This document shows positions 21,519 to 41,323 of a stretch of DNA of 64,000 nucleotides, piece by piece. How positions within the stretch are numbered: the first letter of the stretch is position 1; each line of letters begins with the position of its first letter. The notes under the pieces are model-generated. The model made no database searches and was not told the origin of the DNA. It saw only the letters and a list, made by a program, of their open reading frames with translations. This DNA is from an uncultured Planctomycetota bacterium (GTDB lineage Bacteria > Planctomycetota > Planctomycetia > Isosphaerales > Isosphaeraceae). The position numbers and the translations under genes are program-made. The stretch is from contig CAWGMQ010000005.1 of the NCBI GenBank assembly GCA_963823665.1, positions 160,001 through 224,000 on the forward strand, written 5' to 3'.

Positions 21519-22295
21519 TCACGTTCCGAACTCGGGGCGGCGCGTGGAGAGCTGAGATTGAAGTCGCTGGATGATCGACGAATGCATCTGCGAGACACGC
21601 GACTCGCTCAGGTCCAGCGTCGCACCGATTTCCTTCATGGTTAATTCTTCGTAATAGTACAATATAATTATGAGGCGTTCGTTGCGTGAGAGCCCCTTGG
21701 TCACCATGCGCATCAAGTCTTTGCGCTGGAGGCGGCGGGTGGGGTCTTCACCCTTCTTGTCCTCGAGAATGTCGATCTCGCGGACGTCCTTGTAGCTATC
21801 GGTCTCATACCACTTCTTGTTCAGACTGATCAGGCCGACGGCGTTTGCATCCATCGCCATCTTCTCGAATTCTTCCATCGGCAGACCCAGAAGCCCTGCC
21901 AGCTCGTTTTCAGTGGGAGGCCGGCCGAACCTGGCTTCGAGCTCCTTGCGGGCCTCTTCCATCTTCGTGGCCTTGGAACGCACCAGTCTGGGAACCCAGT
22001 CCATGGTCCGCAGCTCATCGAGCATTGCTCCGCGGATTCGCGGCACGCAGTAAGTCTCGAATTTCACGCCGCGGGTGAGGTCGAAGGCGTCGATCGCATC
22101 CATCAGCCCAAACACCCCGGCCGAGATCAGATCGTCGAGATCGACCCCCTCGGGAAGGCGCTGCCAGATCCGTTCGGCGTTATATTTGACCAGCGGCAAG
22201 TAGCGTTCGACTAGATGATTTCTCAAGTCCGTGGTGGGGTGCTCCTTGAACTCCCGCCAGAGTTCGGTTACATCCACATCCACCTTTGTTGACAT
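21519..22295 (-). CDS. fliA: FliA/WhiG family sigma28
   Basis: DDLISAGVFGLMDAIDAFD, KFETY, RIRGAMLDELRTMDWVPR, LYYYEELTMKEIG, SESRVSQMH. Confidence 0.95.
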   Translation of the reverse strand: MSTKVDVDVTELWREFKEHPTTDLRNHLVERYLPLVKYNAERIWQRLPEGVDLDDLISAGVFGLMDAIDAFDLTRGVKFETYCVPRIRGAMLDELRTMDWVPRLVRSKATKMEEARKELEARFGRPPTENELAGLLGLPMEEFEKMAMDANAVGLISLNKKWYETDSYKDVREIDILEDKKGEDPTRRLQRKDLMRMVTKGLSRNERLIIILYYYEELTMKEIGATLDLSESRVSQMHSSIIQRLQSQLSTRRPEFGT

Positions 22296-22703
22296 CCTGA
22301 CCTCCATGTCGGCTGCGCGAGAGGCGGCACTTCCTGTGCAAAAAGGGCCTTCACGTCACGTCGCATGCCCAAGAGCGGCTCATCTTGGCCGCAAGTCGCA
22401 AGTCTCGACGTGTCCCGACCCGGTAGACCCTCGCGAAACCGCAAGAATCGACCTGCCAGGCCCTTCTCCTCTCGCCATCCAGGGAACTCCCACCCGATTT
22501 GGTATCGGACCGCTTGCTCAATCGGCTTGAGTGATATCATCACAACAACCCGAAAAATCGACCCGAACGGCCTCCTCGCCTCTTTAATTTGGCGCACTCG
22601 CGCCCAATCACGACACGCTCTCCCATTACCTCTCCCCCTTCCAGACGGCTCGTTCCTGAGAACGGCTCGCCCGCGTCGACAGTCGAATCGCCCGCCTTGT
22701 TCG

Positions 22704-23660
22704 TCAATCGCCCCCCCCTCCGCGCGAGAGCAAGAATCGGGCCTCGAGGGCGGCCCGTATCCCCCCTCCCTTCTTTCGATCCGGTGGATACCTCTCCACG
22801 CAGAGCGCCCGCGCGATGCGCCGCATGCCGCGCGATGCCGCCGCGGACGGATACGCCGTCATGAAGGGACGCCGGCCGCGGACGGCCAGCGGCACGTGGG
22901 AATCGAGCCGAATGAACCCCGGCCCAAGAGGCGCAACCACCGCGCCCCGGAATTGCCGACTGATGTTGATAATCTCATCAAGAACTTCCACTCCCTCGGC
23001 GTGCGACCGTGCCTGGTTGACAAGAACTCGCACCCGCGCGATCCGCAACTCGTGGAACCGCCTGATCGCTGCATGAGCATCCGCCAGCGAGGTCGGCTCC
23101 GTCGTGCTGACCACGACGACGTCGTCGGTTGCCGCCGCCAGACACGCAGCTCCCGAGCCCAGCCCCGAGCCTGCGTCAATCACAACGAAGTCGAAGTCAA
23201 GGGCGACCTCCTTCACTTCGCGCGCCAGTCGCTCCGCCGCATCGCCCAGATCGTTCAGGCTCGTGCGGGCTGCATGCGCTCCGGGCACCACGCGGATTCC
23301 GCAGTGCCCATCCACGATGGCATCCGCGATTTCGCACCGGCCTTGCAGCACGTCGCCCAGATCATAGCGCGGCGAAAGCCCGCCCAGGAGATCGAGATTC
23401 GCCAGCCCCACGTCGCCGTCCAGAACCAGCACGCGCTGGTCCATCTCGCCGAGCGCGATCGCCAGGTTCAGAACCAGGTTCGACGTCCCGACCCCGCCTT
23501 TACCGCTCGTGAAGAGCAAGCAATGTGCGCTCGCCGGCGCACTCGCCGTTTGAGCGCGCTCCCCTGCGCAGGATGTCCCGCCGCCGGGCAGTATGCCCGC
23601 ATCAGTTTGAGCCGGCTTGGCACCAACGAGCTGCCGCAGTTTTTCAGCCTGGTCCGACAT
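22704..23660 (-). CDS. flhG: FlhG/FleN (MinD-like) protein with degenerate P-loop
   Basis: MSDQAEKLR N-terminal motif, SGKGGVGTSN, DGDVGLANLD, IDAGSG, EPTSLADA; lies between flhF and fliA. Confidence 0.88.
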   Translation of the reverse strand: MSDQAEKLRQLVGAKPAQTDAGILPGGGTSCAGERAQTASAPASAHCLLFTSGKGGVGTSNLVLNLAIALGEMDQRVLVLDGDVGLANLDLLGGLSPRYDLGDVLQGRCEIADAIVDGHCGIRVVPGAHAARTSLNDLGDAAERLAREVKEVALDFDFVVIDAGSGLGSGAACLAAATDDVVVVSTTEPTSLADAHAAIRRFHELRIARVRVLVNQARSHAEGVEVLDEIINISRQFRGAVVAPLGPGFIRLDSHVPLAVRGRRPFMTAYPSAAASRGMRRIARALCVERYPPDRKKGGGIRAALEARFLLSRGGGGD

Positions 23661-23675
23661 ACGCACTCCTCATAT

Positions 23676-24824
23676 TCAACCCAGGTTTTCCTGTCTGAGG
23701 ATCAGGCGAGCCAGCCGCTTGCGGTCTGCCGGCTCAATGTCATCCGGAACGCCCTGGCCCGTCGTGATGTAGCTGACCGGACGGCTCGAAAGCCCCAGCA
23801 CCGAAAGCAGGCCGCCCAGGCTACCCGCCTCGTCGAGCTTGGTGAGAATGAGCCGGTCCACCTGGACGGTCGAGAAACGCTCCAGCGCCGACCGCAGGCT
23901 TCGCTCCCCGGCGACCGCACTCAAGACGAGATAAACCTCGTCCGGCCGTGCTTGCTGGAGGAACTCGGAGAGCTCGCGGATCTTCACTTCGTCACGAGGG
24001 CTTCTCCCGGCCGTATCGATGAAGACCAGGTCGACTGGCCCCAGCGCGTCGAGCGCTTGAGGCATCTCGCTTGGATCGTTCACAACCGCCAGCGGCAGGT
24101 CGATGATCTCCGCATAGGTCTTGAGCTGCTCGACTGCGGCAATCCGGTAGGTGTCCACCGTGATCAGCCCGACGCGCGCTCCCTGGGCAAGCTTCAGCGT
24201 CGCCGCCAGCTTTGCGACTGTCGTCGTCTTGCCCACCCCGGTCGGGCCTACCAGAGCCACTATCCTCCGCGTGCCCGCCACCGGCCGGATCGGCGGCGCA
24301 ACCGGAATGCACTCCTCCACCGCAGTCGATAAGGCCGCGCGAATCATGTCGGGGTGCGCCAGATCTTCCGGCTCGAGCGCGTCGGCGACGAACTGCACGA
24401 GACGACGGCAGAGCACCTCGGGAACGTCGGCCTCGATCAATTGCGAGTAAGTCGGTACGAGCGCACCCGGCAGGTCCGGAAGCAGGTGCTCGATATGCCC
24501 GTGCCGGCTCAGGCTCTCGACCATCGCATGCAGCTTCCCCAGCTCTTCGCCAAATTGCACATGCATTCCGGACGGAGCTTGGGCTGCGTGCCCCTCGATC
24601 GACGAAATGACCTTGGGCACCCCACGGCCTTCGCGGTTCGCCGCGGCGTCGGCGGGCATCGTGTCGCTGGCCGTCACCTCCACCGAAGACCGCGGGCCCA
24701 GACCGAACAGGCGCCGCCGGCGCACCTCCCGAGCGGAGAGGATCACCGCGTCGCCGCCTAAGTCGCGGCGCACGCGTGTCATCGCCTCCTTCATCGTGCT
24801 GGCTCGGTACGTTTTCGAGCGCAT
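23676..24824 (-). CDS. flhF: SRP-type GTPase FlhF
   Basis: N-terminal KTYRASTMKEA..VRRDLGGDAVILS; GPTGVGKTT, DTYRIAAVEQL, DTAGRS, TKLDE, GQGVPDDI. Confidence 0.95.
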   Translation of the reverse strand: MRSKTYRASTMKEAMTRVRRDLGGDAVILSAREVRRRRLFGLGPRSSVEVTASDTMPADAAANREGRGVPKVISSIEGHAAQAPSGMHVQFGEELGKLHAMVESLSRHGHIEHLLPDLPGALVPTYSQLIEADVPEVLCRRLVQFVADALEPEDLAHPDMIRAALSTAVEECIPVAPPIRPVAGTRRIVALVGPTGVGKTTTVAKLAATLKLAQGARVGLITVDTYRIAAVEQLKTYAEIIDLPLAVVNDPSEMPQALDALGPVDLVFIDTAGRSPRDEVKIRELSEFLQQARPDEVYLVLSAVAGERSLRSALERFSTVQVDRLILTKLDEAGSLGGLLSVLGLSSRPVSYITTGQGVPDDIEPADRKRLARLILRQENLG

Positions 24825-24876: not shown

Positions 24877-27111
24877 TCATACAAGGGCCTCTGTCGTGGT
24901 GTAGGTCGTCACCACTTGCGGCTCTTCCTCGACCACCTTCCCCAGGATCTCGAGCGGCGTATCCCGCGGAATCTCGCGCTGAGAAAGGACCACCAGCCGC
25001 GGCAAGTCGGCCCGCGTCAGGTCTTTGAGCACGGCGCGAGCTGCGGCCGTCGTCAGGATCACCGGCGGATACCCTCCCTCGATCAGCGTGCTGACGGCTT
25101 CCGCGACAGCGTGCACGATCGCTCGGGCTGTTTCTTCACCCAGCGACTCGGCTGGTCGTGCCTCGCCCTGGCTCGCCGCGGCCAGCCGATCATCAAGCCG
25201 CGCGCCCAGGGCAGCCACCCGCAGGCGGCCATCCGGCCCGCGGTACTTCTCCGTGATCTGCCGTGCCAGGCTCCGACGAACCTGCTCGGTCAAAAGATCG
25301 ACGTCCTTCGTCTTCGCGGCGTGCACCGCCAGCGTCTCGAGTATTGTCTCCAGATCGCGAATTCCCACGCGTTCTCGCAGCAGGCTCTGCAAGACGCGCT
25401 GGAGCTCGCCGGCGCGCAACAGCCCCGGCACAACCTCGGTCGCCAGCGTTGGTGCCGATGCGCGAACCCGGTCGAGCAGCCGTTCGACCTGCTCGCGAGT
25501 CAGGATCTCGTCGGCATGGCTCGCTACAATTTCGCCGAAATGGCCCGCGATCACAGCGGCCGTTTCGAGCACCCGGCAGCCCGCCAGCTCGGCAAGCTCG
25601 CGTCCGTCGGCGTGAATCCACACCGCCGGCTGGCCGGTCACGGGGTCAACGCCGTCGCGGCCGTCAGGGCGAGTCACCAACCCCGCCGGCGGCACGGCCA
25701 GCAGCCGGCCCGCATGCGCGACCCCCTGCCCGACCACCATCCCACGAATCTTGACACGATACTCGTGTGGCGCGAGTCCGACTTGATCGTGAATCCGTAC
25801 CTGGGGAACGATCAGGCCCATCTCGCGGGCCACCCGCTGACGCACCGTCTTGAGCAGGTCAAGCAGGTTCCCGCCGCGCGTCGGGTCGGCCAGCCCGATC
25901 AGCCGGAAGCCGATCTCGAGCTCGAGCGGATCGACGTGCAACAAGTCCTCCATCCGGTCCGAACCCGCATCCGGCTGCGTGGCACCCGCCGCTTGCACCG
26001 ATTTGCTGCTCTTGGGACGAGCCGCGATCAAAGGCGATCGTTCATCGGCCCGCCCGGCTGGCAAAGCCACCGGTCGCGAGCCCCCTGCCGGAAGGCCTTC
26101 GTCAACTGCATAATCGTCGCCGCGACGAATGCCGCCGGCGATCGCCGCGGCCCCGAGCGCACCGCCCAGCGTCAGAAGCGGCACCTTTGGCAGCGGCGTC
26201 AGCGCCATGAAACCCAGGAACGCCGCGGCGGTTCCCAGCACGGCCGGCTTCGAGAACAACTGGACGGTCACATCCTCGCTCAAGTCCGTCGACGACGACG
26301 ACCGGGTCACAATCAGCCCCGCCGCCAGAGAGATCAAGAACGCCGGAATCTGGCTGACCAGGCCGTCGCCAATCGTCAGTTTCGTGAATACATTCACCGC
26401 ATCGCCCAAGCTCATACCGTGATTGATGACGCCCAGGAACAGACCCCCGACAATATTCACCAGCAGGATCACCACACCCGCAATCGCATCCCCGCGCACG
26501 AACCGGCTCGCCCCGTCCATCGCCCCGAAGAAATCGGCCTGACGGTAGACGCCCTCCCGGCGCCGGTGCGCCTCGTGCTGATCGATGAGCCCGGCTTGCA
26601 GGTCCGCATCGATCGCCATCTGCCGACCCGGCAGCCCGTCCAGCGTGAATCTCGCCGCCACTTCGCTGATTCGCGTCGCCCCCTGAGTGATCACCACAAA
26701 CTGGATCACGACCAGGATCGAGAACAGGATCACCCCCACGATCACCTGATCACCCGCGACAAATGAGCCAAACGTCTTGATCACATCACCCGCCGCATTC
26801 ACGCCTTCCTCGCCGCCTTTGGTCAGCACCAGCCGCGCCGTCGCCACGTTGAGCACCAGCCGGGTCAGCGTCGTCACGAGCAGGATCGTTGGAAACGCGC
26901 TGAACTCCTGGGGCGTGCGAATCGCCAGCGTGGTCAAGAGCACCACCACCGCGATCGTCAAATTCGCCGATAGAAGGACATCGAGCACCCCCGCGGGCAC
27001 CGGGACGACGAGCACAAGGATCGCGCCGATCAAGGCAACCGGCATCACCAGTCCGCGGAGGTAACCTCCGGCGGAACCGGCTTCACTCGCGCTCGGCGTT
27101 CTGGGAGGCAT
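24877..27111 (-). CDS. flhA: Export gate protein FlhA
   Basis: FSAFPTILL, RLVLNVATARL, RISEVAARFTLDGLPGRQMAIDADL, FFGAMDGASRFVRGDAIAG, IGDGLVSQIP, LLRERVGIRDL; GGAGG RBS before ATG 27111. Confidence 0.95.
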   Translation of the reverse strand: MPPRTPSASEAGSAGGYLRGLVMPVALIGAILVLVVPVPAGVLDVLLSANLTIAVVVLLTTLAIRTPQEFSAFPTILLVTTLTRLVLNVATARLVLTKGGEEGVNAAGDVIKTFGSFVAGDQVIVGVILFSILVVIQFVVITQGATRISEVAARFTLDGLPGRQMAIDADLQAGLIDQHEAHRRREGVYRQADFFGAMDGASRFVRGDAIAGVVILLVNIVGGLFLGVINHGMSLGDAVNVFTKLTIGDGLVSQIPAFLISLAAGLIVTRSSSSTDLSEDVTVQLFSKPAVLGTAAAFLGFMALTPLPKVPLLTLGGALGAAAIAGGIRRGDDYAVDEGLPAGGSRPVALPAGRADERSPLIAARPKSSKSVQAAGATQPDAGSDRMEDLLHVDPLELEIGFRLIGLADPTRGGNLLDLLKTVRQRVAREMGLIVPQVRIHDQVGLAPHEYRVKIRGMVVGQGVAHAGRLLAVPPAGLVTRPDGRDGVDPVTGQPAVWIHADGRELAELAGCRVLETAAVIAGHFGEIVASHADEILTREQVERLLDRVRASAPTLATEVVPGLLRAGELQRVLQSLLRERVGIRDLETILETLAVHAAKTKDVDLLTEQVRRSLARQITEKYRGPDGRLRVAALGARLDDRLAAASQGEARPAESLGEETARAIVHAVAEAVSTLIEGGYPPVILTTAAARAVLKDLTRADLPRLVVLSQREIPRDTPLEILGKVVEEEPQVVTTYTTTEALV

Positions 27112-27491
27112 CCTCTTCCTCCACCACCCTGAAACGTGCCGCGGGCTTCCTGCCCGGAATCGAAACGCACTTGCAAAGGAAAACGGCCCGAGGGCCGATC
27201 GACGTGCTTTGTTCAGGTGGCCCTCGGCCCAGCCAATCACGGCCGCTGACACCCACGTCCAACCGATCGTCATCGTCGGGCCCGCTGTTGCGGACCGTTC
27301 CGTCGACAGCCAGTCGGAGGTCCGCATTTGCGGACCCTACCAGGAAAACGAACGGGAAGTGCAGAGTGTTGAGACGTGTGGCGGGACGATACCGCCGATC
27401 GAGGCGTGTGTCCAGACCGAATGTGAAGACCACAGCACGCCGCCACGTCAGGTCGGAACGGGATTTCAGCCGAGCCATTCGCAGGTGCGCC

Positions 27492-28514
27492 TCAGGTAGC
27501 AGGCCAGATCGCCGCGAGGTCGGCGATCAGCTCCGCCGCGATCGCAGAGCCGGCCGCGGGCCGGACCGCCAGCCGCTGCGCCAGGAGCGTCTCTTCGATT
27601 TGAGGAAGGCTGCCTGCCTCCGCGCGCCTTCGCAGCCGCAAGCCCACCGCCCCCTTCGCGACCGTCCGCACCAACACCTTCCGCGGCGGCGGCCCGCCCG
27701 CCATCACCAGCGTCAGCCCGGCCGCGCCGTTCAACAGGAAGGCCGCACCGGCAAGCAGCTCAGGTGAATCGCCGCGCATCGATCGCGCCACGCGCTGGCG
27801 CTGCGCCCGAGCCGCCGGGTCTCCCTCCATCACCCGCTGGTCCTCCCGGTGCTCTTGCGTGCTCGTTCGCAGCATGGCCTCGAAACGCCGGTACCTGAGC
27901 ACATAATCGAACAATCCCAATGTCAGCAGCGCCCCGCCCAGAATACATGATGTGCGCAGCACGATATGCCCCGCAGCCGCCGCCAGCTTCGGCCCTTCAA
28001 GGTGGCTCTGAAGCAGGAAATCACCCCAGCTCCCCCGGAGCACCCATACCGAGCCGACGACCAAGACAATCCCTTTCGCCACCGACCACGAAGATTGAAC
28101 GAGTCGCGTGGAAAGACCCTGGCCGTTCGAGAACCTCCACAGACGCTTCGGGTCCGGAACGATCTGCGAAGGCGCCCACAACCCACGAACCTGGGCCTGA
28201 TGTGCCGCGACGGACGCAACGGCGAAACCGCCCAGAATCGCCGCCATCGGCCACGCCAACCCTAGCGCGAGCCTGCGAGTATGAGTCGCGACAGCCAGGG
28301 CATCACCGGGTAATTGGGCCGGATGCACCAGCGATTCGCGCACCGCTCCCGCCAGCGCCACCGCCAGATCATGCCCGAAGAATCCCAGCAACGTCACCGC
28401 CGCCAGCCAACCCACCGCCGCCGTCAGCTCCGGGCTGTGCGCAGCCTGCCCCTGCTCCCGCGCCATCTGGCGCCGGCGTTTCGAAGGCGGCTGCGTACGG
28501 TCCTCAGACATCAT
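27492..28514 (-). CDS. flhB: FlhB/EscU-like export protein lacking the NPTH motif
   Basis: EDRTQPPSKRRRQMAREQGQAAHSPEL, four TM segments, STQEHREDQRVMEGDP; C-domain present but NPTH absent. Confidence 0.88.
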   Translation of the reverse strand: MMSEDRTQPPSKRRRQMAREQGQAAHSPELTAAVGWLAAVTLLGFFGHDLAVALAGAVRESLVHPAQLPGDALAVATHTRRLALGLAWPMAAILGGFAVASVAAHQAQVRGLWAPSQIVPDPKRLWRFSNGQGLSTRLVQSSWSVAKGIVLVVGSVWVLRGSWGDFLLQSHLEGPKLAAAAGHIVLRTSCILGGALLTLGLFDYVLRYRRFEAMLRTSTQEHREDQRVMEGDPAARAQRQRVARSMRGDSPELLAGAAFLLNGAAGLTLVMAGGPPPRKVLVRTVAKGAVGLRLRRRAEAGSLPQIEETLLAQRLAVRPAAGSAIAAELIADLAAIWPAT

Positions 28515-29285
28515 CGAAAATTGCTTTCATACGTCTGCCAAACGTGCGTGACCATCGCAAACAGGGTTGTCAGACTGAGCAGAATCAGGACGACGCCGAT
28601 CAGCGTGCGGATGGGCAGCGCAAGTGCGACAAACGGCAGCGACGAAGCCGCTCGGCTCAGCCATCCGATGATGATTCCCGCCAGGCACAGTGCCACCGCG
28701 ACCGGTGCCGCCGCCTGTAGCGCCAGCTCGAGCGCATGGCCAAGCTGTGCGAACGCGGCGCGGCCAGTCTCGGTTGAGATCACCAGGCCGCCAGCGGGCA
28801 CGGCCTGATAGCTGTCGATGAGAACCTTGACCAGGATCATCGGGCCGCCGAGCCCCAGAAACGCCACCACGGCAATCCACCCGTAAAGCCGGCCCAGTGG
28901 GCCGATCTCCTCGCCGGTCTCCGGGGTCCAGCAGCGTCGAGGTCGAAAGACCGGCCTGTGCGGCCACCAGCTCACCGCCCATCCTGACTCCGGCAACGAT
29001 CGTGGCAGCGAGATAGCCCAGCACCGCCCCGGCAAGCAGTTCCAGGAACGACAATGACGCCACGCTCTGCCAGCTTGCGGGGGCAACGATCGTGGGCTCG
29101 ATCACCGGAATCAACACCAGAGCGAGTGCCGCGGCCAGCCCGATCCGAAACCGCCAATCGAGCTCCGGAATCGCCAGCCCCGGCGCCGTCAGGCACAGCC
29201 CCAGCACACGCGCAAGCACAAGTGCACCCGCCGAAGCGTGCCCGAGCAGCCAGAACCAGTCGAGCTCACCGCTCTCCCAAGGCAC
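28511..29285 (-). CDS. fliR: FliR, probable 1-bp frameshift in the run at ~28923-28926
   Basis: LVLARVLG..APG, RFRIGLA, ELLAGAVLG, GGELVAAQAGLS in one frame; DPETG..FLGLGG..LQAAAP..LPIR in the next. Confidence 0.85.
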
Positions 29286-29323: not shown

Positions 29324-29590
29324 TCAAAGCATTTCAGGAATCGACCTGAACAGTTCCGCAGCGAACGAAACCCAGCGGCTCAAGAGCCACGGCAGAATCA
29401 CCAGCAGCACGAGTGCAACGCCGACCAGCCGGGGTACCAGCGCGACGACCGGCTCATGCAACTGCGTCAGCGTCTGCCCCACGTTGACCAGCAACCCCAC
29501 AACGAGAGCCGCAGCCAGCAGCGGCCCACCCAGCAGCAAGATCATCCGCAGCGCTTTGCGCGTCCAGTCGATCGCATGAGTCAATTCCAC
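29324..29590 (-). CDS. fliQ: FliQ
   Basis: GTG start; ILLLGGPLLAAALVVGLLVNVGQTLTQLHEPVVALVPRL; 88 aa. Confidence 0.9.
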   Translation of the reverse strand: MELTHAIDWTRKALRMILLLGGPLLAAALVVGLLVNVGQTLTQLHEPVVALVPRLVGVALVLLVILPWLLSRWVSFAAELFRSIPEML

Positions 29591-29594
29591 TTGA

Positions 29595-30545
29595 CTACGG
29601 CCCCCCGGAAAATGTGGAAAGCAGCATCGTCGCGACCAGCATCCACCCGTCCGCCAGCACAAAGACGATGAGCTTGACCGGCGTCGCCACCAGCGACGGC
29701 GGCAGCATGAAGAGCCCCGTGGCCGCCAGCACCGCTGACACCACCAGATCGATGACCAGGAAAGGTAAATAGATAAAGAAGCCAATCAAGAGCGCCGTCG
29801 TCAGCTCGCTCAGGAGATATGCCGGCGCCACCACATAGAGCGGCACGTCTTCCGGCCTCGTCGGATCGGTGTCTGCCCGGCCAGGGCTCCGCGGTACGGC
29901 GTAATCATAAAGCGTCTCCAGGTATTCTTGATGCTTGGTTGCGATGATCTGATCAACCATGAACGCCTTGATCGGCTTGCTGCCCGCGGCCCAGGCCTGC
30001 GAAGCGGATAACTCGCCGGCGGCATAAGGGCGGATCGCGTCCTGATGCACGCGCTCGGCGTGCGGCTTCATGACCAGCGCCGTCAAGAGCAGCGCAAGCG
30101 CGGTCAAGACCTGGTTGCCCGGGATTTGCGGGCTCCCCAGCGCCTGCCGTAGCAGCATGAGCACAATGTTGATCCGCACAAAAGCCGTGACCATCAAGAC
30201 CGCGATTGGCGCCAGCGAGATCAGCCCGAAGAGCGCCACCGTCTGCACCGTGTGCATCGTGTCCTCGCGCCGGCCGAGCAGCGATTCCGGTGAAGGCGAA
30301 GATGCTTCCAGCGCCGCCGGCCGATTAGGCTCGATCGCCGCCGCGTCCGACGCTGCATCCGCAGTCTTCACCGCGCGGTCGTCCCCCGCCGCGCTCACGG
30401 CCTTCGAATCCGCACCTCGTCGTTCCGAAGCCTGTGAACCGGACTGTGCACGGCCACTCTCCGGAAATTGAAGAACGGCCAGCAGCGCGCATGCCGCGGC
30501 AAACGTCGCCCGCGCGATCAATGGCCGCATGCTGGATCGGCTCAT
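29595..30545 (-). CDS. fliP: FliP
   Basis: LMVTAFVRINIVLMLLRQALGSPQIPGNQVL, PAYLLSEL, YLPFLVIDLVVSAVL, PVKLIVFVLADGW. Confidence 0.93.
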   Translation of the reverse strand: MSRSSMRPLIARATFAAACALLAVLQFPESGRAQSGSQASERRGADSKAVSAAGDDRAVKTADAASDAAAIEPNRPAALEASSPSPESLLGRREDTMHTVQTVALFGLISLAPIAVLMVTAFVRINIVLMLLRQALGSPQIPGNQVLTALALLLTALVMKPHAERVHQDAIRPYAAGELSASQAWAAGSKPIKAFMVDQIIATKHQEYLETLYDYAVPRSPGRADTDPTRPEDVPLYVVAPAYLLSELTTALLIGFFIYLPFLVIDLVVSAVLAATGLFMLPPSLVATPVKLIVFVLADGWMLVATMLLSTFSGGP

Positions 30546-31126
30546 GACACTTCTCCTTGCCCGCGGACCGGCTCTGTCGGAGAGAGAGCGATGTCATCCA
30601 GCTCGCTGATCAGTGTCGGAGCACCCTGCGGCCCGGTCCCCACCAGCAACACTCTGCCCCCCGCGCGCACCAGGTAAACCGCGTGCTTGGGTGAAAGGCT
30701 CACTCGCGAAACGACATGCAGCGCCCCTGACCCCGGCCGCAAGTTGAACCGCCGCGCCGCCAGAGCAAGCCCTCCCACTGCGCCCAGCAACACCGCAACG
30801 CTCGCCAGTGCCAGGTACCACGCGTCAGACCCGCGTTCGCGCCCAGCGCTCGAAGTCCGCCGCGGCAAGAGCAGCCGCGATGATGGCCGCGGCTGTTCCT
30901 CCACGTTCCGCGATTCCTCAACGTCGTCCAAGGCACCGCCGCCAGTGACGGATGCGATTCCGCCAGACTTCACCGGTTGATCCCCTCGTGTCTCCCGCAG
31001 CGCAGCATCCTCGCCCTTCGCCATGACAATCAGCCCGCCCGCGCCAAAAAGCAGAAATACGACGATCGCATGAGGAGTCAGCCCCGCAAGAGATTTCAGC
31101 GTCGCTCGATCTGATCGCAATGTCAT
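30542..31126 (-). CDS. fliO: FliO/FliZ-like protein
   Basis: TM segment followed by LHVVSRVSLSPKHAVYLVRAGGRVLLVGTG; directly upstream of fliP. Confidence 0.8.
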   Translation of the reverse strand: MTLRSDRATLKSLAGLTPHAIVVFLLFGAGGLIVMAKGEDAALRETRGDQPVKSGGIASVTGGGALDDVEESRNVEEQPRPSSRLLLPRRTSSAGRERGSDAWYLALASVAVLLGAVGGLALAARRFNLRPGSGALHVVSRVSLSPKHAVYLVRAGGRVLLVGTGPQGAPTLISELDDIALSPTEPVRGQGEVS

Positions 31127-31145
31127 CGCCAGCCCCCCCGACAAT

Positions 31146-31953
31146 GGGCTGTTGAAAACTTGCCGTACAAGGAGCGGAGATTTCCCGGCGCGAATGCAGC
31201 GCCAAACTTCCCCCGCTTTAGAAGGGGGGGCCAGGGCGGCCTGTTGAAAACTTGCGATCTAACGAACGATGATTCCCCCCCGCATGTGTTGCGCCAACTT
31301 TCCCCCCCTTTAGAAGGGGGGGCCAGGGGGGGGCCGTCCCAGCGGCCGCCGTCAAAAAACCGTCGCGCAACAGAAAACGCCGAATCGTCCACCTCGAAAT
31401 TCCCCAATACGGCCCGCTTTTCATCAGCCCAGCGCCAGCGTGGCCTGTTGATAACTTGCAGAATACGGAGCGGAGATTTCCCGCCGCGAATGTTGCGCCA
31501 ACTTTCCCCCCCTTTAGAAGGGGGGGCCAGGGGGGGTCCGTCCCGGCGGCCGCCGTCAAAAAACCGTCGCGCAACAGAAAACGCCGAATCGTCCACCTCG
31601 AAATTCCCCAATACGGCCCGCTTTTCATCAGCCCAGCGCCAGCGTGGCCTGTTGATAACTTGCAGAATACGGAGCGGAGATTTCCCGCCGCGAATGTTGC
31701 GCCAACTTTCCCCCCCTTTAGAAGGGGGGGCCAGGGGGGGTCCGTCCCGGCGGCCGCATACCGAGAGTCGCTCGACCTCGCCACCCCGACTCCTGCTCGT
31801 ACTCGTCTTCCCGCACTCCGTGCCCCGTGCTCCGCCGTCCGTAGGCCGGGGGGGGTTCATTCCGGCGGCCGCAATCACGAAACCGTCGCTCAACAGAAAG
31901 CGCCGAATCGTGCACCTCAAAATTCGCCAACACGGCTTTCTTTTCATCAGCCC
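31146..31953. mobile_element. Tandem array of ~204-bp MITE-like elements
   Basis: Units start at 31238, 31442 and 31646 (204-bp period) plus a partial unit at 31146. Ends GG(G/C)CTGTTGA(A/T)AA and TTTTCATCAGCCC are inverted repeats. Internal hairpin CCCCCCCTTTAGAAGGGGGGG. Confidence 0.75.
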
Positions 31954-31996: not shown

Positions 31997-32061
31997 ATCA
32001 ATCGAAGCGCTTCGCGATTCAATTGATCGGAGCAATCAAATCGCGAAGCGATTCGATTGAT
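31997..32061. other. Long imperfect inverted repeat (stem-loop) just after the fliG stop
   Basis: ATCAATCGAAGCGCTTCGCGATT...AATCGCGAAGCGATTCGATTGAT. Confidence 0.7.
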
Positions 32062-32070
32062 CGGACCCGT

Positions 32071-32700
32071 TCAGACGACCACTTCCTCGCTTCCACTCGT
32101 GTCCGGCAGGCTGATGCGTCCCCGGTCATACAGCCGGCGCAGCTTCTCCGCGATCTCATGCTGCGCCGCTTCCGAGTCCGACAGCCGGAATGGACCTAAT
32201 CGTTCGAGTGCGTGCCGCAGCCGCTCGGATGAAGAAGCCGCCAGCGCCGAGAGCACCTTGGTCCGCACGGATGCGGCACCCCCCGCCAGCGCCAGCGCCC
32301 AGGTGTCCGTGTCTTCTTCGTCGAGCGCCGCGCGAATGTCGGGTTCGCTCATTCGCATCAGGTCGTCGAACACGAAGCACAGCCGCCGCAGGCCTAGTCC
32401 GTAGAACTCTTCGAGCACGGCCGCTCGTTCCGCCGGGTCGACGCGTTCGAGCCGGGCGATCTCCCATGTCACCGACTCCACCGCAGCGCGGTCGAGGTGC
32501 GTCAAAAGCTGAGACGCCAGCGATTGGTCCAGGCTCACCAGCACGATCGCCGCCTTGCGCACCGGCGAAATCTCCGATGCATCCTCGCTATAGGCGTACG
32601 GCGCGTTGCCAGCGGTCTCATCACCGTCGTCCTGAAGGAAACCGCCGCGCCCCGATTCGCGCAGCCGGCCCGGCTCGATGTCTTCGCGCGTCGCCGTCAT
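32071..32700 (-). CDS. fliG: Mini-FliG: N domain fused directly to C domain (209 aa)
   Basis: RKAAIVLVSL...AVLEEFY (FliG_N-like) runs straight into FVFDDL...ALAL...GPFRLSDSEAAQ..I...RRL...G.I (FliG_C-like). ATGA overlap with fliF. Confidence 0.85.
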   Translation of the reverse strand: MTATREDIEPGRLRESGRGGFLQDDGDETAGNAPYAYSEDASEISPVRKAAIVLVSLDQSLASQLLTHLDRAAVESVTWEIARLERVDPAERAAVLEEFYGLGLRRLCFVFDDLMRMSEPDIRAALDEEDTDTWALALAGGAASVRTKVLSALAASSSERLRHALERLGPFRLSDSEAAQHEIAEKLRRLYDRGRISLPDTSGSEEVVV

Positions 32701-34325
32701 GACGAGCGGCCCCCCTGCCCGACCCAGCGCTGCAGCACGCTGGCCGCGGCTTCCGGATTGCGCTGAATCAGCTCGCGAACTCGCTCGGATGGGCTGGACT
32801 GCCCGACCGAGCCCGCGTGGTACCGCCGCGACCGGTCCGAAACCTCGGGTAGCCGCGAGGGTCTGCGGGCCAGGTGAAACAGCGAGCCTGCAATGGCCAG
32901 AATGGACACGCCCGCACCCACCGCCCCCACGATTCCCCATTCCATCAATCGCTGGCGCGTGTCGGTCGTATCGGGAATGACCGTGGGCCGGCTCAGCGCA
33001 ACTTCGTCCGCAAACGTGCCCACTTCGACCTTCCAGGAATCGGCATCGGGCAACAACAGCGAGATCGCGGTGAGGATGGATTTCTCGGTGCGATCGGCCA
33101 TCGCTCGCAGCTCCTCGAGCGAAGGCTTGCCCTGGTCGCCGCGGATTTCCATGTTGAGATAGAAGCTCCGCGGCACATTCACAACCACCCGCCCCCGCTC
33201 CTTCGAAGTCGAAGTATCCCCCCCTCGAGTGGGTGGCACCGGCTCTGCCAGTGTCCCACGATCACCCGCTACTCGGGGGCGTGCCACCGGCTTTCCTGGT
33301 GCCCCACGATCACCCGCTCCTCGGGGGGTTGCCACCGGCCCCGCCAGTGTCTCGCTCTCGAGCGAAAGCGGCCGATTGACGGCGATCAACGAGTGGGAGC
33401 CGCTCGGGTGTTCGTCAATCCCGCCGGCATGGCTCGGCCCAGGCTCGTGATGCGCCTCCCCCGCTCCGGCGCCCTTGGCGCTGGCAAAGCTTCCCGACCC
33501 GCCGGGTATCTTCGTGACAATCTCGCCCGCGTGCGGCGAGATCACCTGCACTTGCACGCGCACTCCCTTGATCCAGTCGAGCTTTTCGAGGATTTCCTCG
33601 GTGATTTCTTCCTCCCGGGCGCGATTCCGCGAGTGGTCACGAAGGGCGGGGTTGCCGGGATCGAGGTAACGCATGCCGCGATGGTCCATCAGCGTGATCG
33701 ACCCTGTTTCGAGCCCGGGAACCATACCGCCCAGGAGCGAGAGGATCGCCTGCACGCTCCGTGACGGAACCGCGCGGCCTCTCTCGGTCTCGACATACAC
33801 AAGCGCGGAGGCTTTAGGGCTGATGCGAGAGAATGGCTGCGCGCGGGGACGATTGATGGATACGAAGGACGAAAGCACGCCTTCCTGCTCTCCGATCAGC
33901 CGCTCCAGCATGCGTTCGAGCCTCACTTTTTCGTGATATTCACGCTCGATCTCTCCGTCAAAAAAGCTGTCCGAGCTCCGATCCTCGCGTATGTCCTTGA
34001 TCGAGCGCGGTCCGAGGTCGAGCTTCGCGACGCTCTCGGCCGCCTGCTCGAACTGCCCTGGCGCGACTTCGACGCGCCGTTGGTCGTCGATCCGGTACGC
34101 AACTCGCTGTTTCTCCAGCGCGCGAACGACCGTGATCAGCTCCTCGGAGGAAAACCTCTTGCCCATGTTGAGGTAGCGCACGCCAGAAGGAGACAGGTTG
34201 CCGGCACCCCAGTAGCTCGCCGCGCCGAGCACCAGCAAGACGGCCGAGGCCAGTCCCCACCTGACCGCACGCCGCTGGGCGGCGATTGGCTGCCACAGCC
34301 GCGCCACTCCCGCGCAGTCGTTCAA
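32697..34325 (-). CDS. fliF: MS-ring protein FliF (divergent)
   Basis: Two TM helices, RBM1/RBM2-like region (LERLIGEQEGVLSSFVSI..KASALVYV..VPGLETGSITLMD), C-terminal NPEAAASVLQRW; TTG start assumed. Confidence 0.82.
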   Translation of the reverse strand: MNDCAGVARLWQPIAAQRRAVRWGLASAVLLVLGAASYWGAGNLSPSGVRYLNMGKRFSSEELITVVRALEKQRVAYRIDDQRRVEVAPGQFEQAAESVAKLDLGPRSIKDIREDRSSDSFFDGEIEREYHEKVRLERMLERLIGEQEGVLSSFVSINRPRAQPFSRISPKASALVYVETERGRAVPSRSVQAILSLLGGMVPGLETGSITLMDHRGMRYLDPGNPALRDHSRNRAREEEITEEILEKLDWIKGVRVQVQVISPHAGEIVTKIPGGSGSFASAKGAGAGEAHHEPGPSHAGGIDEHPSGSHSLIAVNRPLSLESETLAGPVATPRGAGDRGAPGKPVARPRVAGDRGTLAEPVPPTRGGDTSTSKERGRVVVNVPRSFYLNMEIRGDQGKPSLEELRAMADRTEKSILTAISLLLPDADSWKVEVGTFADEVALSRPTVIPDTTDTRQRLMEWGIVGAVGAGVSILAIAGSLFHLARRPSRLPEVSDRSRRYHAGSVGQSSPSERVRELIQRNPEAAASVLQRWVGQGGRSS

Positions 34326-37240: not shown

Positions 37241-38270
37241 GCCGCGATGGCAAGACGGTGCGGCTCAACAGCCACTATCGCGACGTCGACGGGCTTTTCG
37301 AAGTCATCCAGGCGGCGGTGTTTGAGCGGCTCTTGCCCAAGGCCCGCGAGGCGCTCGAGGCCGGCCGGTCGGATTTGGCCCCGTGCGGCTGACGGCCCAG
37401 GGGTTTGACGACGGCGGGCTCCAGCTCCTTCCGTGGGTAGATTACGCAGGTTTCACCGTCGATAAAGCGTTCTTGACCATACGGAAGCGCGGCCAGAAGT
37501 CCGATTGGTTCTCACGCGCCCTGCGCGACATCCCGAACGCGCGTGTGCTCATCGCACTCTTGCAAGCCGGGCCCAACAGCCTGGGAGTCCATGCTGCCCG
37601 ACCGCCTTTGCCGGCGGCCGCGCCCAAGGTGATGACGGCAAAAAAGCAAGACGCGGCGCGATTCTATCTCGGGGCCTTTGCGTTCCTGGGGCTGCTCCTG
37701 GGTCCGGGTTGCGTTTACTTGACCTGGCAACAATTCCTGCTGCATCGCCGGGGCACGGCGACGCCCAAGGAGATCCGCCTGGAAGACCTCGCGCGCGGCG
37801 GGCCGCCAGCAAATGTCCATGTCCGGGTAACCGATTTCTCGCCTGGTCCCAGGTTCGTGATCGACAACCGGCACGAGCACGGTCAGAACATCTTCATCCC
37901 GCTCTTTCCCCGCGGCGCCGAGCCCCGCGGCGGACTTCTCAAGGTCGTGCTCAAATCCAGCAAAGTCAGGAACGAAGAGGGCGTGCAATCCCTCCGCGCG
38001 CACAACTCGATCACCGGCGTGATCGTCAACGACATCGATAACATCGGCCTGCAGCAGAAGGCCAAATTATCCAATCTGTACCCGTTCGCCAACATTGACT
38101 CAGCGCTGCTGCTGGCGCACGACTACCGCTTTCCAAACACAACACTCCTCGCCCTGTACGCCGCCGGCTCGGCCGCACTCGTACTAGTTGGCCTCGCCTC
38201 GGCATTGGGAAGCGTCATGTTGGCGCTCAAGCCCAAGCCGCGACAATTCCCGTTCCTGCGTAGAAGCTGA
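37241..38270 (+). pseudogene. 5'-truncated membrane protein (DUF6585-like domain plus TM-flanked domain), frameshift near 37372
   Basis: DGKTVRLNSHYRDVDGLFEVIQAAVFERLLPKAREALEAG in one frame, FGPVRLTAQG..LPW..RDIPNARVLIALL in the next; two TM helices downstream. Confidence 0.5.
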
Positions 38271-38817
38271 AAAGATCCGTCGACATCGCACGCCAGCGAT
38301 ATCGGCAGAGCTGCCCGGCGGACCACCCCGGGCGCGACTCGTGTTGTTAACGAAGGAATGGAATGACGCCTTGTTCCGCGAGAGGATGGACATCGACGAG
38401 GTGGTACGGGCCGCGCCTCCGCTCGCGCAAACATCGCGCGCTCCATCTGTGTCGTCTGAAATTGATATGCGACGAGTATTCTCATTTGGCAAAACCAACG
38501 TCCAAAAAAGTGCAATCACTCAATCGACACCGCTGCAACGTCACGAGTTGTGTTCGTGCGTAATTTCTTTGTTAGTTGCTCCGCGTCTGCCAGTGAGTTA
38601 GGTGCTCCTCAGGTTACTCCTAGGAGAGACCCCTGATCGGCAACTTCCGATTGCGCTACCTTGGCGATCCCCGGCGCACTCGCCAGTGCATGCATTAGTT
38701 CAAAGACGGCCCGCTAGTTCCCAGTGCATGCGCCGAACCAACACGCGAGCGCGTGTCGGCAGGCGTTCCACGGAATCCGGCTTTCAGGTAAAATGCCCAT
38801 CATCAAGGAGGGTCGCC

Positions 38818-39309
38818 ATGCCCGAGACGTTCGCCCTATCCGAATCGGCCGTCGCCGTGCTCCGGTTCCGCGTCAAAGGCCACCAGATAACGGTTACGGA
38901 CCGCTCGATAGAGGCGTTCCGCGAGCTGGCCGCCGCCGGAATCATGGAGCCGGTGCCTGCCGCGGATGGCAACCCCGAAGCCGATTACCGCTTCACGGAC
39001 GACGGTTGGGCCCGGCGGCAGGAACTGCTCAGCGAGGCGGAGGAACAGATCGAGCGGGAGCGGTTCGAGCCGCCCGACGCGAGCAATCTCCCGGAGGCGG
39101 CCAGGGAGCTGCTGCGCCGCCGGCTGGCTGGTGATCGAGAGGTGACGGAGGCCAATCGGCCACTCTATCGCGAGCTGGTGGCGGCGCGGATCATGTATCC
39201 GGTCTCGACTTGGGTCGGCGGCCCGGAGTCAGTTTTCCGTTTCACCCGCGCGGGGTGGGAGCGTCGGGAGGAATGGATCAAAGTCTGCGCTGACGCTCTC
39301 CATCCCTGA
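38818..39309 (+). CDS. Hypothetical protein with two internal winged-helix-like repeats (copy 1)
   Basis: AGGAGG RBS; LSESAVAVLR..FRELAAAGIMEPV..YRFTDDGWARR and LPEAARELLR..YRELVAARIMYPV..FRFTRAGWERR. Confidence 0.8.
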   Translation: MPETFALSESAVAVLRFRVKGHQITVTDRSIEAFRELAAAGIMEPVPAADGNPEADYRFTDDGWARRQELLSEAEEQIERERFEPPDASNLPEAARELLRRRLAGDREVTEANRPLYRELVAARIMYPVSTWVGGPESVFRFTRAGWERREEWIKVCADALHP

Positions 39310-39811: not shown

Positions 39812-40434
39812 GCCGCCAGCCTATCGCATCAGAGATCGTCGCGCAACCAGGCAGACGTGCGGGGCACTCACGCTACTCCAGTGCGTCTTGGCCGACGGGC
39901 CCCTGGGTAGAAGACTTTGAATTTGACCTGGCCAGAACGTCTTCATCCCGCTCTTTCCCCGCGGCGCCGAGCCGCGCGGAGGACATCTCAAGGTCGTGCT
40001 CAAATCCAGCAAAGTGAGGAACGAAGAAGGCGTGCGATCCCTCCGCGCCCAGAACTCGATCACTGGCGTGATCGTCAACGACATCGAAACCATCGGCTTC
40101 CAGCAGAAGGCCGAATTATCAAGTCTATACCCGTTCGCCGACATTGACTCGGCGCTGCTGCTGGCGCACGACTACCGCTTTCCAAACACATCATTGCTCG
40201 CCCTGTACGCCGCCGGCTCGGCCGCACTCGTGCTAGTCGGCCTCGCCTCGGCAGTGGGAAGCTTCATGTTGGCACTCAAGCCCAAGCCGCGACAATTCCC
40301 GTTCTTGAGTAGAAGCTGAGAAGAACCGTCGAGATCGCACGCCAGCGATTTTGGCAGTGCGGTCCAGGAACCTTGTTCCCCGATCGGATGGACATCGAGG
40401 CGGTGGTCCGCTCCGCGCCTGGCATGTCGAAAGA

Positions 40435-40760
40435 TTACCGAATGAGCAGCGGAAAATTTCCCGCCGCGCAAGTTGCGCCAAGTCTCCACTCTTGAGAAGG
40501 GGGGGTCGGGGCCGGCTGCCGAAAAGTTGCAGTACAGCAAGCGCAGATTTCCCGCCGGCAATGTTGCGCCAAGCTTCCCCCCTTAACAAGGGGGGGCCAG
40601 GGGGGGTCCGTCCCGGCGATCGCCATCACAAAACCGTCGCGCAACACAAAACGCCGAGTTGTCCACCTCGAAATTCGCCAATACGGCCCGCTTTTCATCA
40701 GCCCAGGGCCAGGGGGGTGCATTCCGGCGGCCGTCCAAGAAGAGTCGCTCGACCGCACCA
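40435..40760. mobile_element. Dispersed copy of the MITE-like element (core ~40513-40704)
   Basis: Shares AGATTTCCCGCC..AATGTTGCGCCAA..CCCCCCTT..AAGGGGGGGCCAGGGGGGGTCCGTCCC..CCACCTCGAAATT..TTTTCATCAGCCC with 31442-31634. Confidence 0.8.
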
Positions 40761-40831
40761 CACCGCGGGTCGGCAGACGTTCCACGGAATCCGGCTTTCA
40801 GGTAAAATGCCCATCATCAAGGAGGGTCGCC

Positions 40832-41323
40832 ATGCCCGAGACGTTCGCCCTGTCCGAATCGGCCGTCGCCGTGCTCCGGTTTCGCGTCAAAGGCTACCAG
40901 ATGACGGTTACCGACCGCTCGCTAGCGGCGTTCCGGGAGTTGGCCGCGGCCGGAATCATGGAGCCGGTACCGGGCGCGAATGGCAACCCCGAAGCCGATT
41001 ACCGCTTCACGGAGAACGGTTGGGCCCGGCGGCAGGAACTGCTCAGCGAGGCGGAAGAAGAGTTCGAGCGGGAGCGGTTCGAGCCGCCCGACGCGAGCAA
41101 TCTCTCGGAGGCGGCCAGGGAGCTGCTGCGCCGCCGGCTGGCTGGTGATCGAGAGGTGACGGAGGCCAATCGGCCACTCTATCGCGAGCTGGTGGCGGCG
41201 CGGATCATGTATCCGGTCTCGACTTGGGTCGGCGGCCCGGAGTCGGTGTTCCGATTCACCCGCGCGGGCTGGGAGCATCGGAAGGAATGGGTCAAAGTCT
41301 GCGCCGACGCTCTCCATCCGTGA
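40832..41323 (+). CDS. Hypothetical tandem winged-helix-like protein (copy 2)
   Basis: Near-identical to 38818-39309. Confidence 0.8.
   Translation: MPETFALSESAVAVLRFRVKGYQMTVTDRSLAAFRELAAAGIMEPVPGANGNPEADYRFTENGWARRQELLSEAEEEFERERFEPPDASNLSEAARELLRRRLAGDREVTEANRPLYRELVAARIMYPVSTWVGGPESVFRFTRAGWEHRKEWVKVCADALHP

Follow-up and report, generated by a model that had tools for sequence, protein, structure and literature searches.

The window analyzed here is the whole 64,000-nt stretch of contig CAWGMQ010000005.1 (assembly GCA_963823665.1, positions 160,001 to 224,000), and coordinates given without a contig or locus refer to it; it belongs to the host genome (G000). The reverse strand carries an operon of flagellar-type genes in the order fliF-like, mini-fliG, fliO, fliP, fliQ, fliR, flhB, flhA, flhF, flhG and fliA. 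This order recurs throughout the family with some splitting, the family being taken as Isosphaeraceae from the source names of the homologues (Isosphaeraceae, Singulisphaera). The conserved set comprises fliF-like, mini-fliG, fliOPQR, flhB and flhA and usually also flhF, flhG and fliA, with flgM located elsewhere. The following features were assigned:

32697..34325 (-), fliF-like gene, 542 aa; Pro-rich sequence in place of the long hairpin strands; FliG-binding-type motif retained at the C-terminus
32071..32700 (-), mini-fliG, 209 aa; start codon region overlaps the stop of the fliF-like gene
32572..32700 (-), N-terminal extension of mini-FliG, residues 1–43, variable and predicted to be disordered (pLDDT < 50; dN/dS 0.37–1.33)
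32398..32571 (-), FliG_N part, residues 44–101, putative FliF co-folding helices (Pfam, 55 bits; matches the FliG chain of 5tdy)
32362..32418 (-), deletion junction, residues 89–108, predicted single continuous helix into an MFxF-like motif (AlphaFold, hhalign)
32107..32391 (-), FliG_CC torque-domain fold that retains one of five stator-contact charges (Pfam, structure comparison)
31145..31953 (no strand), 204-nt repeat array, at the site of a second, FliG_C-only gene in 10 of 23 family loci
30542..31144 (-), fliO (profile match)
29595..30545 (-), fliP (profile match)
29324..29596 (-), fliQ (profile match)
28511..29285 (-), fliR, split between two frames at a short C/G run near 28925
27492..28514 (-), flhB without the NPTH self-cleavage motif
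24877..27327 (-), flhA, full length (TIGR01398, 758.7 bits; cut-off 772.1)
23676..24824 (-), flhF, whose product has a conserved FliG-interaction-type domain at its N-terminus
22704..23666 (-), flhG-like gene for a MinD ATPase
21519..22307 (-), fliA (sigma-28; TIGR02479 over its cut-off; dN/dS 0.011)

The CORE set is complete, as FliO, FliP, FliQ, FliR, FlhA and FlhB were all found, with fliR frameshifted in the host assembly. The frameshift is probably a sequencing error, since fliR is intact in a genome of the same genus (G001). In the FliF-like protein, Pro-rich sequence stands where flagellated relatives carry the long hairpin strands, and the C-terminal motif is conserved and aligns with FliF of flagellated relatives. 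The 204-nt repeats, which contain G/C runs, form a dispersed family that is arranged in tandem between mini-fliG and fliO (31145–31953) and also occurs at 40420–40707. An imperfect hairpin (31997–32061) directly follows the mini-fliG stop. Elsewhere in the window, 37881–39049 and 39930–41063 form a duplication spaced by ∼2 kb that contains small unannotated genes and is 92–93% identical over two 300-nt blocks.

Pfam assigns residues 44–101 of mini-FliG to FliG_N as a partial match (model positions 2–59 of 104, 55 bits) and residues 104–198 to FliG_C (model positions 14–108, 81.3 bits); TIGR00207 scores the protein at 82 bits, under its cut-off of 226.7. When aligned by hhalign with 12 full-length FliGs (probability 99.8), mini-FliG shows a single gap of 165 residues (template residues 60–224), with the torque domain following immediately after the first ∼60 residues of FliG_N. 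This confirmed the preliminary description, in which FliG_N ran straight into FliG_C with no middle domain. The deletion is larger than the loss of the middle domain described there: FliG_M is gone, but so are the last ∼45 positions of the FliG_N model and most of FliG_CN. The lost portion of FliG_N would correspond to helices 5 and 6, and the EHPQ/ESPQ motif occurs in 0 of 121 homologues among the matches listed. In canonical FliG, the parts that are missing here make the FliM contact and the inter-subunit contacts of the C ring (PMC11528121).

A Pfam match to FliG_M on residues 50–90 (27.1 bits) formally exceeds the cut-off of 25, and a hit of this kind had been named earlier as speaking against the loss of the middle domain. 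However, it sits inside the stronger FliG_N match (55 bits) and is a cross-match only, so a third domain at these residues was rejected. Structural alignments place the N part on FliG_M, because FliG_N and FliG_M have a common helical repeat, but sequence profiles clearly favor FliG_N, and the assignment to FliG_M was also rejected. The family profile matched the N-termini of six full-length planctomycete FliGs (domain E-values of 1e-8 to 1e-16) and gave no significant match to their middle domains; therefore, the N segment of mini-FliG is FliG_N. In the AlphaFold model, the two halves of the protein are joined by one helix (residues 89–108). The modeled C part superimposes on stator-bound FliG (8ucs_H) with a Z score of 14.0 and an rmsd of 1.6 over 88 aligned residues, and invariant surface-type motifs are present in FliG_CC. 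Mini-FliG is the only FliG_C match in the host genome. The presence of a full-length FliG elsewhere in this genome was rejected on the basis of this single match and the lack of a second convincing FliG_M match.

The C part aligns with T. maritima FliG without gaps, and the charged positions were numbered on the Salmonella FliG chain (mini-FliG residue 198 = 323). In line with the preliminary description, we take K264 and R297 to be torque charges. R281 and D288/D289 are described as charges of the torque helix (PMC11528121). The equivalents of K264, R281, D288, D289 and R297 in mini-FliG are A139, S156, H163, A164 and R172, and the replacement of the first four, with only R297 kept, had been proposed earlier and was reproduced in the T. 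maritima and Salmonella alignments. At these five positions, the charge class is retained in 0, 0, 8, 14 and 121 of the 121 homologues among the matches listed. The genome-level counts are 0, 2, 2, 0 and 20 of 20 copies (20 of the 23 copies; three that are frameshifted were excluded). At the same positions, six canonical planctomycete FliGs carry K, R, E, E or N, and R or K.

Of 8000 candidates, 865 matched in the protein search, and the best 120 of these are 170–219 aa long; a mini-FliG match was present in 22 of the 24 other family genomes. Relatives share the junction, the length of which is identical in 121 of 121 homologues among the matches listed. An independent contig from run X5 (331 nt, 20 differences; a contig and not raw reads) bridges the junction (32147–32477), which argues against the assembly collapse that had been considered earlier. 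For residues 44–200, dN/dS is 0.11–0.20 in five of five pairs (0.106 for the fliP control), with constraint strongest on the FliG_N part (0.07–0.14). The torque domain is under purifying selection. An assembly collapse or a pseudogene was rejected on the basis of the fixed junction among the matches listed, the X5 contig and the dN/dS values. In a tree of the C domain (38 rows, with the mini-FliGs of G003, G004, G006, G009, G010 and G014 left out), the mini-FliGs form one clade (100/100) and the FliG_C-only genes, including that of G040, form another (100/98), in a topology that does not show which ancestral paralogue gave which group.

Flagellar genes were surveyed in 25 family genomes and 16 other genomes by single-family searches, on which all absences rest. 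The family genomes are 60 to 99% complete (host genome, 91.9%), and single absences therefore mean little. A rod motif, flagellin over the cut-off, FliI over the cut-off and MotA were each found in 0 of 25 family genomes, and all four were found in the same 12 of the 16 non-family genomes; the pattern of absence holds in the family genomes above 90% complete. MotA was searched with a protein query, as PF20560 is too insensitive for planctomycete MotA, and its distribution (0 of 25 versus 12 of 16) supports the earlier proposal that mini-FliG does not engage stators. A flagellin match below the cut-off in G003 was taken as noise. None of four family genomes yielded FliE, FliH or the hook/rod C-terminal family, all of which were present in the one flagellated control. 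FlhA and FlgM were each found in 24 of the 25 family genomes, and rod-less genomes of three other families (G025, G027 and G040) also keep FlhA, FlhF, FliA and FlgM. The gate is of the FlhA and not the SctV type (758.7 versus 489.3 bits); the searches gave no match to SctL (PF02108) and none over the cut-off to FliI/SctN. Described Isosphaeraceae are reported to have no motile swarmers and few flagellar genes (PMC5352709). Among the titles and abstract openings searched, none dealt with a truncated FliG or with the retention of a gate in Isosphaeraceae. A term search of the main text of PMC6456723, PMC12248157 and PMC3459982 returned no mention of the family, and the main text of the first does not name Planctomycetes.

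Across the family FlgM hardly varies, even in its N-terminal half. A sigma-28-like motif, classed as such by its resemblance to the consensus, was detected in the 300 nt before flgM in 18 of 24 family genomes, as against 5 of 147 control windows, and in 0 of six non-family genomes; in such family-wide counts, kin genomes are not independent. Twelve of the 14 copies of an unnamed gene family have the same motif at −127 to −150, with the G014 copy counted as a miss (control windows, 3/69), and the host genome's copy carries it as well. In its looser form the motif matched only 4 of 12 flagellin upstream regions, its genome-wide count in the host is at the control level (3 versus 5), and none lies upstream of fliF in the window. 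The parts of a FlgM/sigma-28 checkpoint, fliA, flgM and sigma-28-type motifs (the last by resemblance to that consensus), are thus present. A single query matched the unnamed gene (host copy at G000:C6:1180395, L137:1501–2800, frameshifted in the host assembly; others at L136:603–1427 (-) and L145–L159) in 13 of the 24 other family genomes. The gene encodes a protein with a hydrophobic signal-like N-terminus, a variable acidic middle and conserved terminal helices, for which there was no Pfam match and no usable Atlas match.

The FlhB switch is degenerate. NPTH was found in FlhB of 0 of 14 family genomes and 0 of three other rod-less genomes and is present in two of two flagellated ones. FlhB ends before the NPTH-bearing domain in G005, G019, G020 and G025, and the host FlhB keeps its C-domain without the cleavage motif and looks uncleavable, which argues against FlgM export. 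In Salmonella, an uncleavable FlhB blocks late export. It also argues against export that FlgM/sigma-28 control can operate without it and that the conserved N-terminus of FlgM may bind something else. FlhA keeps motifs that we take to be ion-coupling residues. In Salmonella, export of FlgM frees sigma-28 and is possible without FliHIJ, although such ATPase-free export needed a raised proton motive force or raised substrate levels (PMC4230889). Loss of Fluke and FlhB_CCD is described as locking late secretion (PMC13060781).

The account that we favor, with not quite even confidence, is that mini-FliG binds and stabilizes the FliF-like ring and helps to assemble a rod-less, stator-less gate that likely exports FlgM and thereby switches on sigma-28. 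That mini-FliG is a non-rotating adaptor is highly probable; given such an adaptor, FlgM export would be slightly favored over its absence. A gate exporting FlgM, with mini-FliG as its ring adaptor, would be the simplest account of the genes kept and lost. Mini-FliG is outside the family of working FliG rotors and would work like the FliF-binding half of such a rotor, and the retained C-terminal motif of the FliF-like protein together with the strong constraint on the FliG_N part argue for the FliF-binding scaffold envisaged in the preliminary description. Conserved motifs are found on both sides of this putative contact. The FliG_N helices would co-fold with the C-terminus of FliF, as in solved complexes, and the retained FliG_CC would provide a docking surface, for which FlhF, placing the ring, is the best candidate. 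The gate would be driven by the proton motive force with no ATPase. In the absence of a rod and a ruler, and with the FlhB switch domain degenerate, FlgM would pass the inner membrane, and the freed sigma-28 would transcribe flgM and the unnamed family-specific gene. The retention of FlgM and sigma-28 and the purifying selection on the torque domain suggest that the complex has a function; since this domain is kept under selection without stators, it presumably has a second function.

Binding of mini-FliG to FlhF is weakly predicted. Conservation of the FlhF N-domain extends beyond the family to G025, G027 and G040. The predicted complex of this domain with mini-FliG and the FliF tail, the tail being present as an unscored chain, scored 0.58 (best of three controls, 0.00), which is rated weak and not as an interface: of 157 solved pairs 116 reach the mark for this score, as do 2 of 215 mismatched ones, and the range up to 0.60 holds only 18 solved pairs together with both mismatched ones. 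The runs agree in at least 93% of contacts, with a partner pLDDT of at least 77. In Shewanella, that FlhF domain attaches to FliG-MC and prevents FliM from binding (PMC11236974). This implicates the middle domain that is missing here and so argues against docking, and G024 (99% complete) has mini-FliG with no FlhF match. For these reasons, FlhF docking is treated as a lead.

The preliminary description had also claimed that no C ring is engaged. The FliM-binding domain is gone and FliM over the cut-off was found in 0 of four family genomes tested, but an unlinked SctK/SctQ-like gene pair occurs in 17–19 of the 25 family genomes, and the absence of a C ring in this system is unproven. The second gene of the pair encodes a SPOA protein of 443 aa (G000:C3), the only one in the host genome, such a protein being present in 17 of 25 family genomes; it best matches SctQ (TIGR02551, 91.8 bits, under the cut-off of 100.8), and there is a weak FliM match in G022 and G020. 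Directly upstream lies a SctK/FliG-like gene in 19 of 25 family genomes and 0 of 16 others. The pair could form a split C ring, in which mini-FliG would anchor FliF and dock the SctK/FliG-like protein, which would supply the middle-domain function and bind the SctQ/FliM-like protein, giving a flagellum-injectisome hybrid sorting platform without an ATPase. We consider this arrangement unlikely. The model of the G022 homologue (pLDDT 86.8) does resemble PscK best (6uie; Z 9.6, rmsd 4.3, 165 aligned), a modest match that is below the bar for helical proteins, and then, over residues 71–143, FliG middle domains (Z 7.2, rmsd 2.1–2.2, 69–72 aligned). The top Foldseek rows are FliG (E 0.007 or weaker) and the Atlas neighbors include FliG_M/C clusters. 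However, hhalign relates the protein to FliG with a probability of only 3%. Pfam gave no match to the protein, and a profile search of its family returned 320 unnamed proteins with no annotation. The pair is unlinked to the fliF/mini-fliG operon and was not found in G016, G019 and G024 (93–99% complete), which keep a short FliG, and therefore it is not required. In the host genome it lies at L044:7989–10374, with the SctK-like gene frameshifted in the host assembly and intact in relatives. In G000, G011 and G022 the pair sits downstream of response-regulator and histidine-kinase genes.

The gate could instead build or feed a surface or membrane structure, either as a CORE-type nanotube platform or by exporting some other, non-flagellar protein, for example the unnamed one under putative sigma-28 control, with mini-FliG as a ring scaffold only and FlgM export incidental or absent. 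Retention of all six CORE genes is in agreement with this, as are other bacteria named as having CORE genes and few flagellar genes (PMC6456723) and the conserved terminal helices and variable acidic middle of the unnamed family. We nevertheless consider it rather unlikely: CORE alone leaves the retention of FlgM, FliA, FlhF, FliF and part of FliG unexplained, and a term search of a 2026 tubeosome preprint gave no mention of FliF, FliG or FlhF. The hydrophobic signal-like start of the unnamed protein is unlike type III substrates, and one query for its gene gave a match in no more than 13 of the 24 other family genomes.

Still less probable is that the FliF/mini-FliG/gate complex is sensed from the cytoplasm with no export, as in the FlgSR checkpoint of C. 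jejuni, where the MS ring and the FliG N-domain suffice for the transcriptional signal (PMC3760246). The lack of an ATPase, the degenerate FlhB C-domain and the invariant surface-type motifs in FliG_CC would fit such sensing, but no sensor partner was identified, export explains the retention of FlgM more simply, and FlhA keeps the motifs that we take to be ion-coupling residues. A decaying flagellar relic or an assembly error, suggested by the frameshifts in fliR and the SctK-like gene of the host assembly and by the very diverged short FliG of G016 (branch 2.75), is very improbable and largely refuted by the dN/dS of 0.11–0.20, the junction fixed in 121 of 121 homologues among the matches listed and crossed by an independent contig, and the conserved gene order, with the frameshifted genes intact in relatives.

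When compared with canonical FliG (PF14842, PF14841 and PF01706; TIGR00207), mini-FliG has the putative FliF-binding N helices, the MFxF-like motif, the FliG_CC fold and the site right after fliF in common, but it misses 165 residues, EHPQ and four of the five torque charges, and no stator gene was found. A close parallel is an engineered C. jejuni FliG without the middle domain, which is stable, stabilizes FliF and supports the transcription checkpoint at about 40%, without FliM/FliN (PMC3760246). Mini-FliG is in contrast natural and family-wide, has a larger deletion, and occurs with FlgM/sigma-28 as the regulator in place of FlgSR/sigma-54. The needle-less T3SS of Myxococcales likewise conserves the export apparatus while lacking rod genes, stators, a secretin and a needle, but it is reported to keep the ATPase and to lack FliG and FliE (PMC3459982), whereas the Isosphaeraceae system has no ATPase and has flagellar-type FlhA, FliF, FlhF, FliA, FlgM and a FliG derivative. 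The nanotube CORE gate shares FliOPQR, FlhA and FlhB in non-flagellated cells (PMC6456723); FliF, mini-FliG, FlhF/G and FlgM/FliA are also kept here. The injectisome sorting platform (SctK-SctQ; PscK 6uie) is resembled by the unlinked pair in the host genome, but no SctL or SctN was found.

Returning to the gate that would export FlgM, it is possible, and we suggest it with reserve, that in several planctomycete lineages the basal body is a pure signaling device: an FlhF-placed FliF ring held by a motor-less mini-FliG would carry an ATPase-free gate with FlgM as sole cargo, and gate assembly or the energy state of the membrane would set sigma-28 activity and a developmental, non-flagellar regulon in cells that bud and do not swim. 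Mini-FliG is a natural, selected dissection of FliG, in which FliF binding would be separated from FliM binding and torque. The system, which occurs in a family of which some members are in culture, offers what would be a living minimal type III gate that lacks an ATPase, a rod and a cleavable FlhB, and it bears on the smallest working export gate, on CORE retention in non-flagellated bacteria and on the exaptation of flagella. The unnamed gene is a candidate non-flagellar sigma-28 target.

Further FliG variants were observed in other genomes. A second gene with FliG_C only is present in 10 of 23 family loci, where the host genome has the repeat array instead; it encodes ∼100 aa and overlaps the mini-fliG stop (L047:12491–12796 and nine other loci), and in G011 a ribosome-binding site precedes its TTG start. 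In G040, from another family, FliF is fused directly to FliG_C (L067:9874–12289 (-)), followed by a FliG_C-only gene and fliPQR-flhB, and this genome gave no rod, MotA, FliI or SPOA match. The fusion and the FliG_C-only genes therefore indicate that the torque domain has repeatedly been kept near FliF without stators. The flagellated genomes G031, G036 and G026 have a second, full-length charge-poor FliG in the flagellar operon and the canonical FliG elsewhere, and a similar charge-poor form follows fliF in the rod-less G025 (second or charge-poor FliGs at L063:4925–5992, L061:6610–7770, L065:4875–6068 and L068:9771–10928). Three FlhA matches were found in G006 (C186, C677 and C29; 6% contamination), which may reflect mixed bins or extra systems. 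Stand-alone proteins that match only the cytoplasmic half of FlhA are encoded in the flagellated G026 (C2:357603) and G036 (C95:36083).
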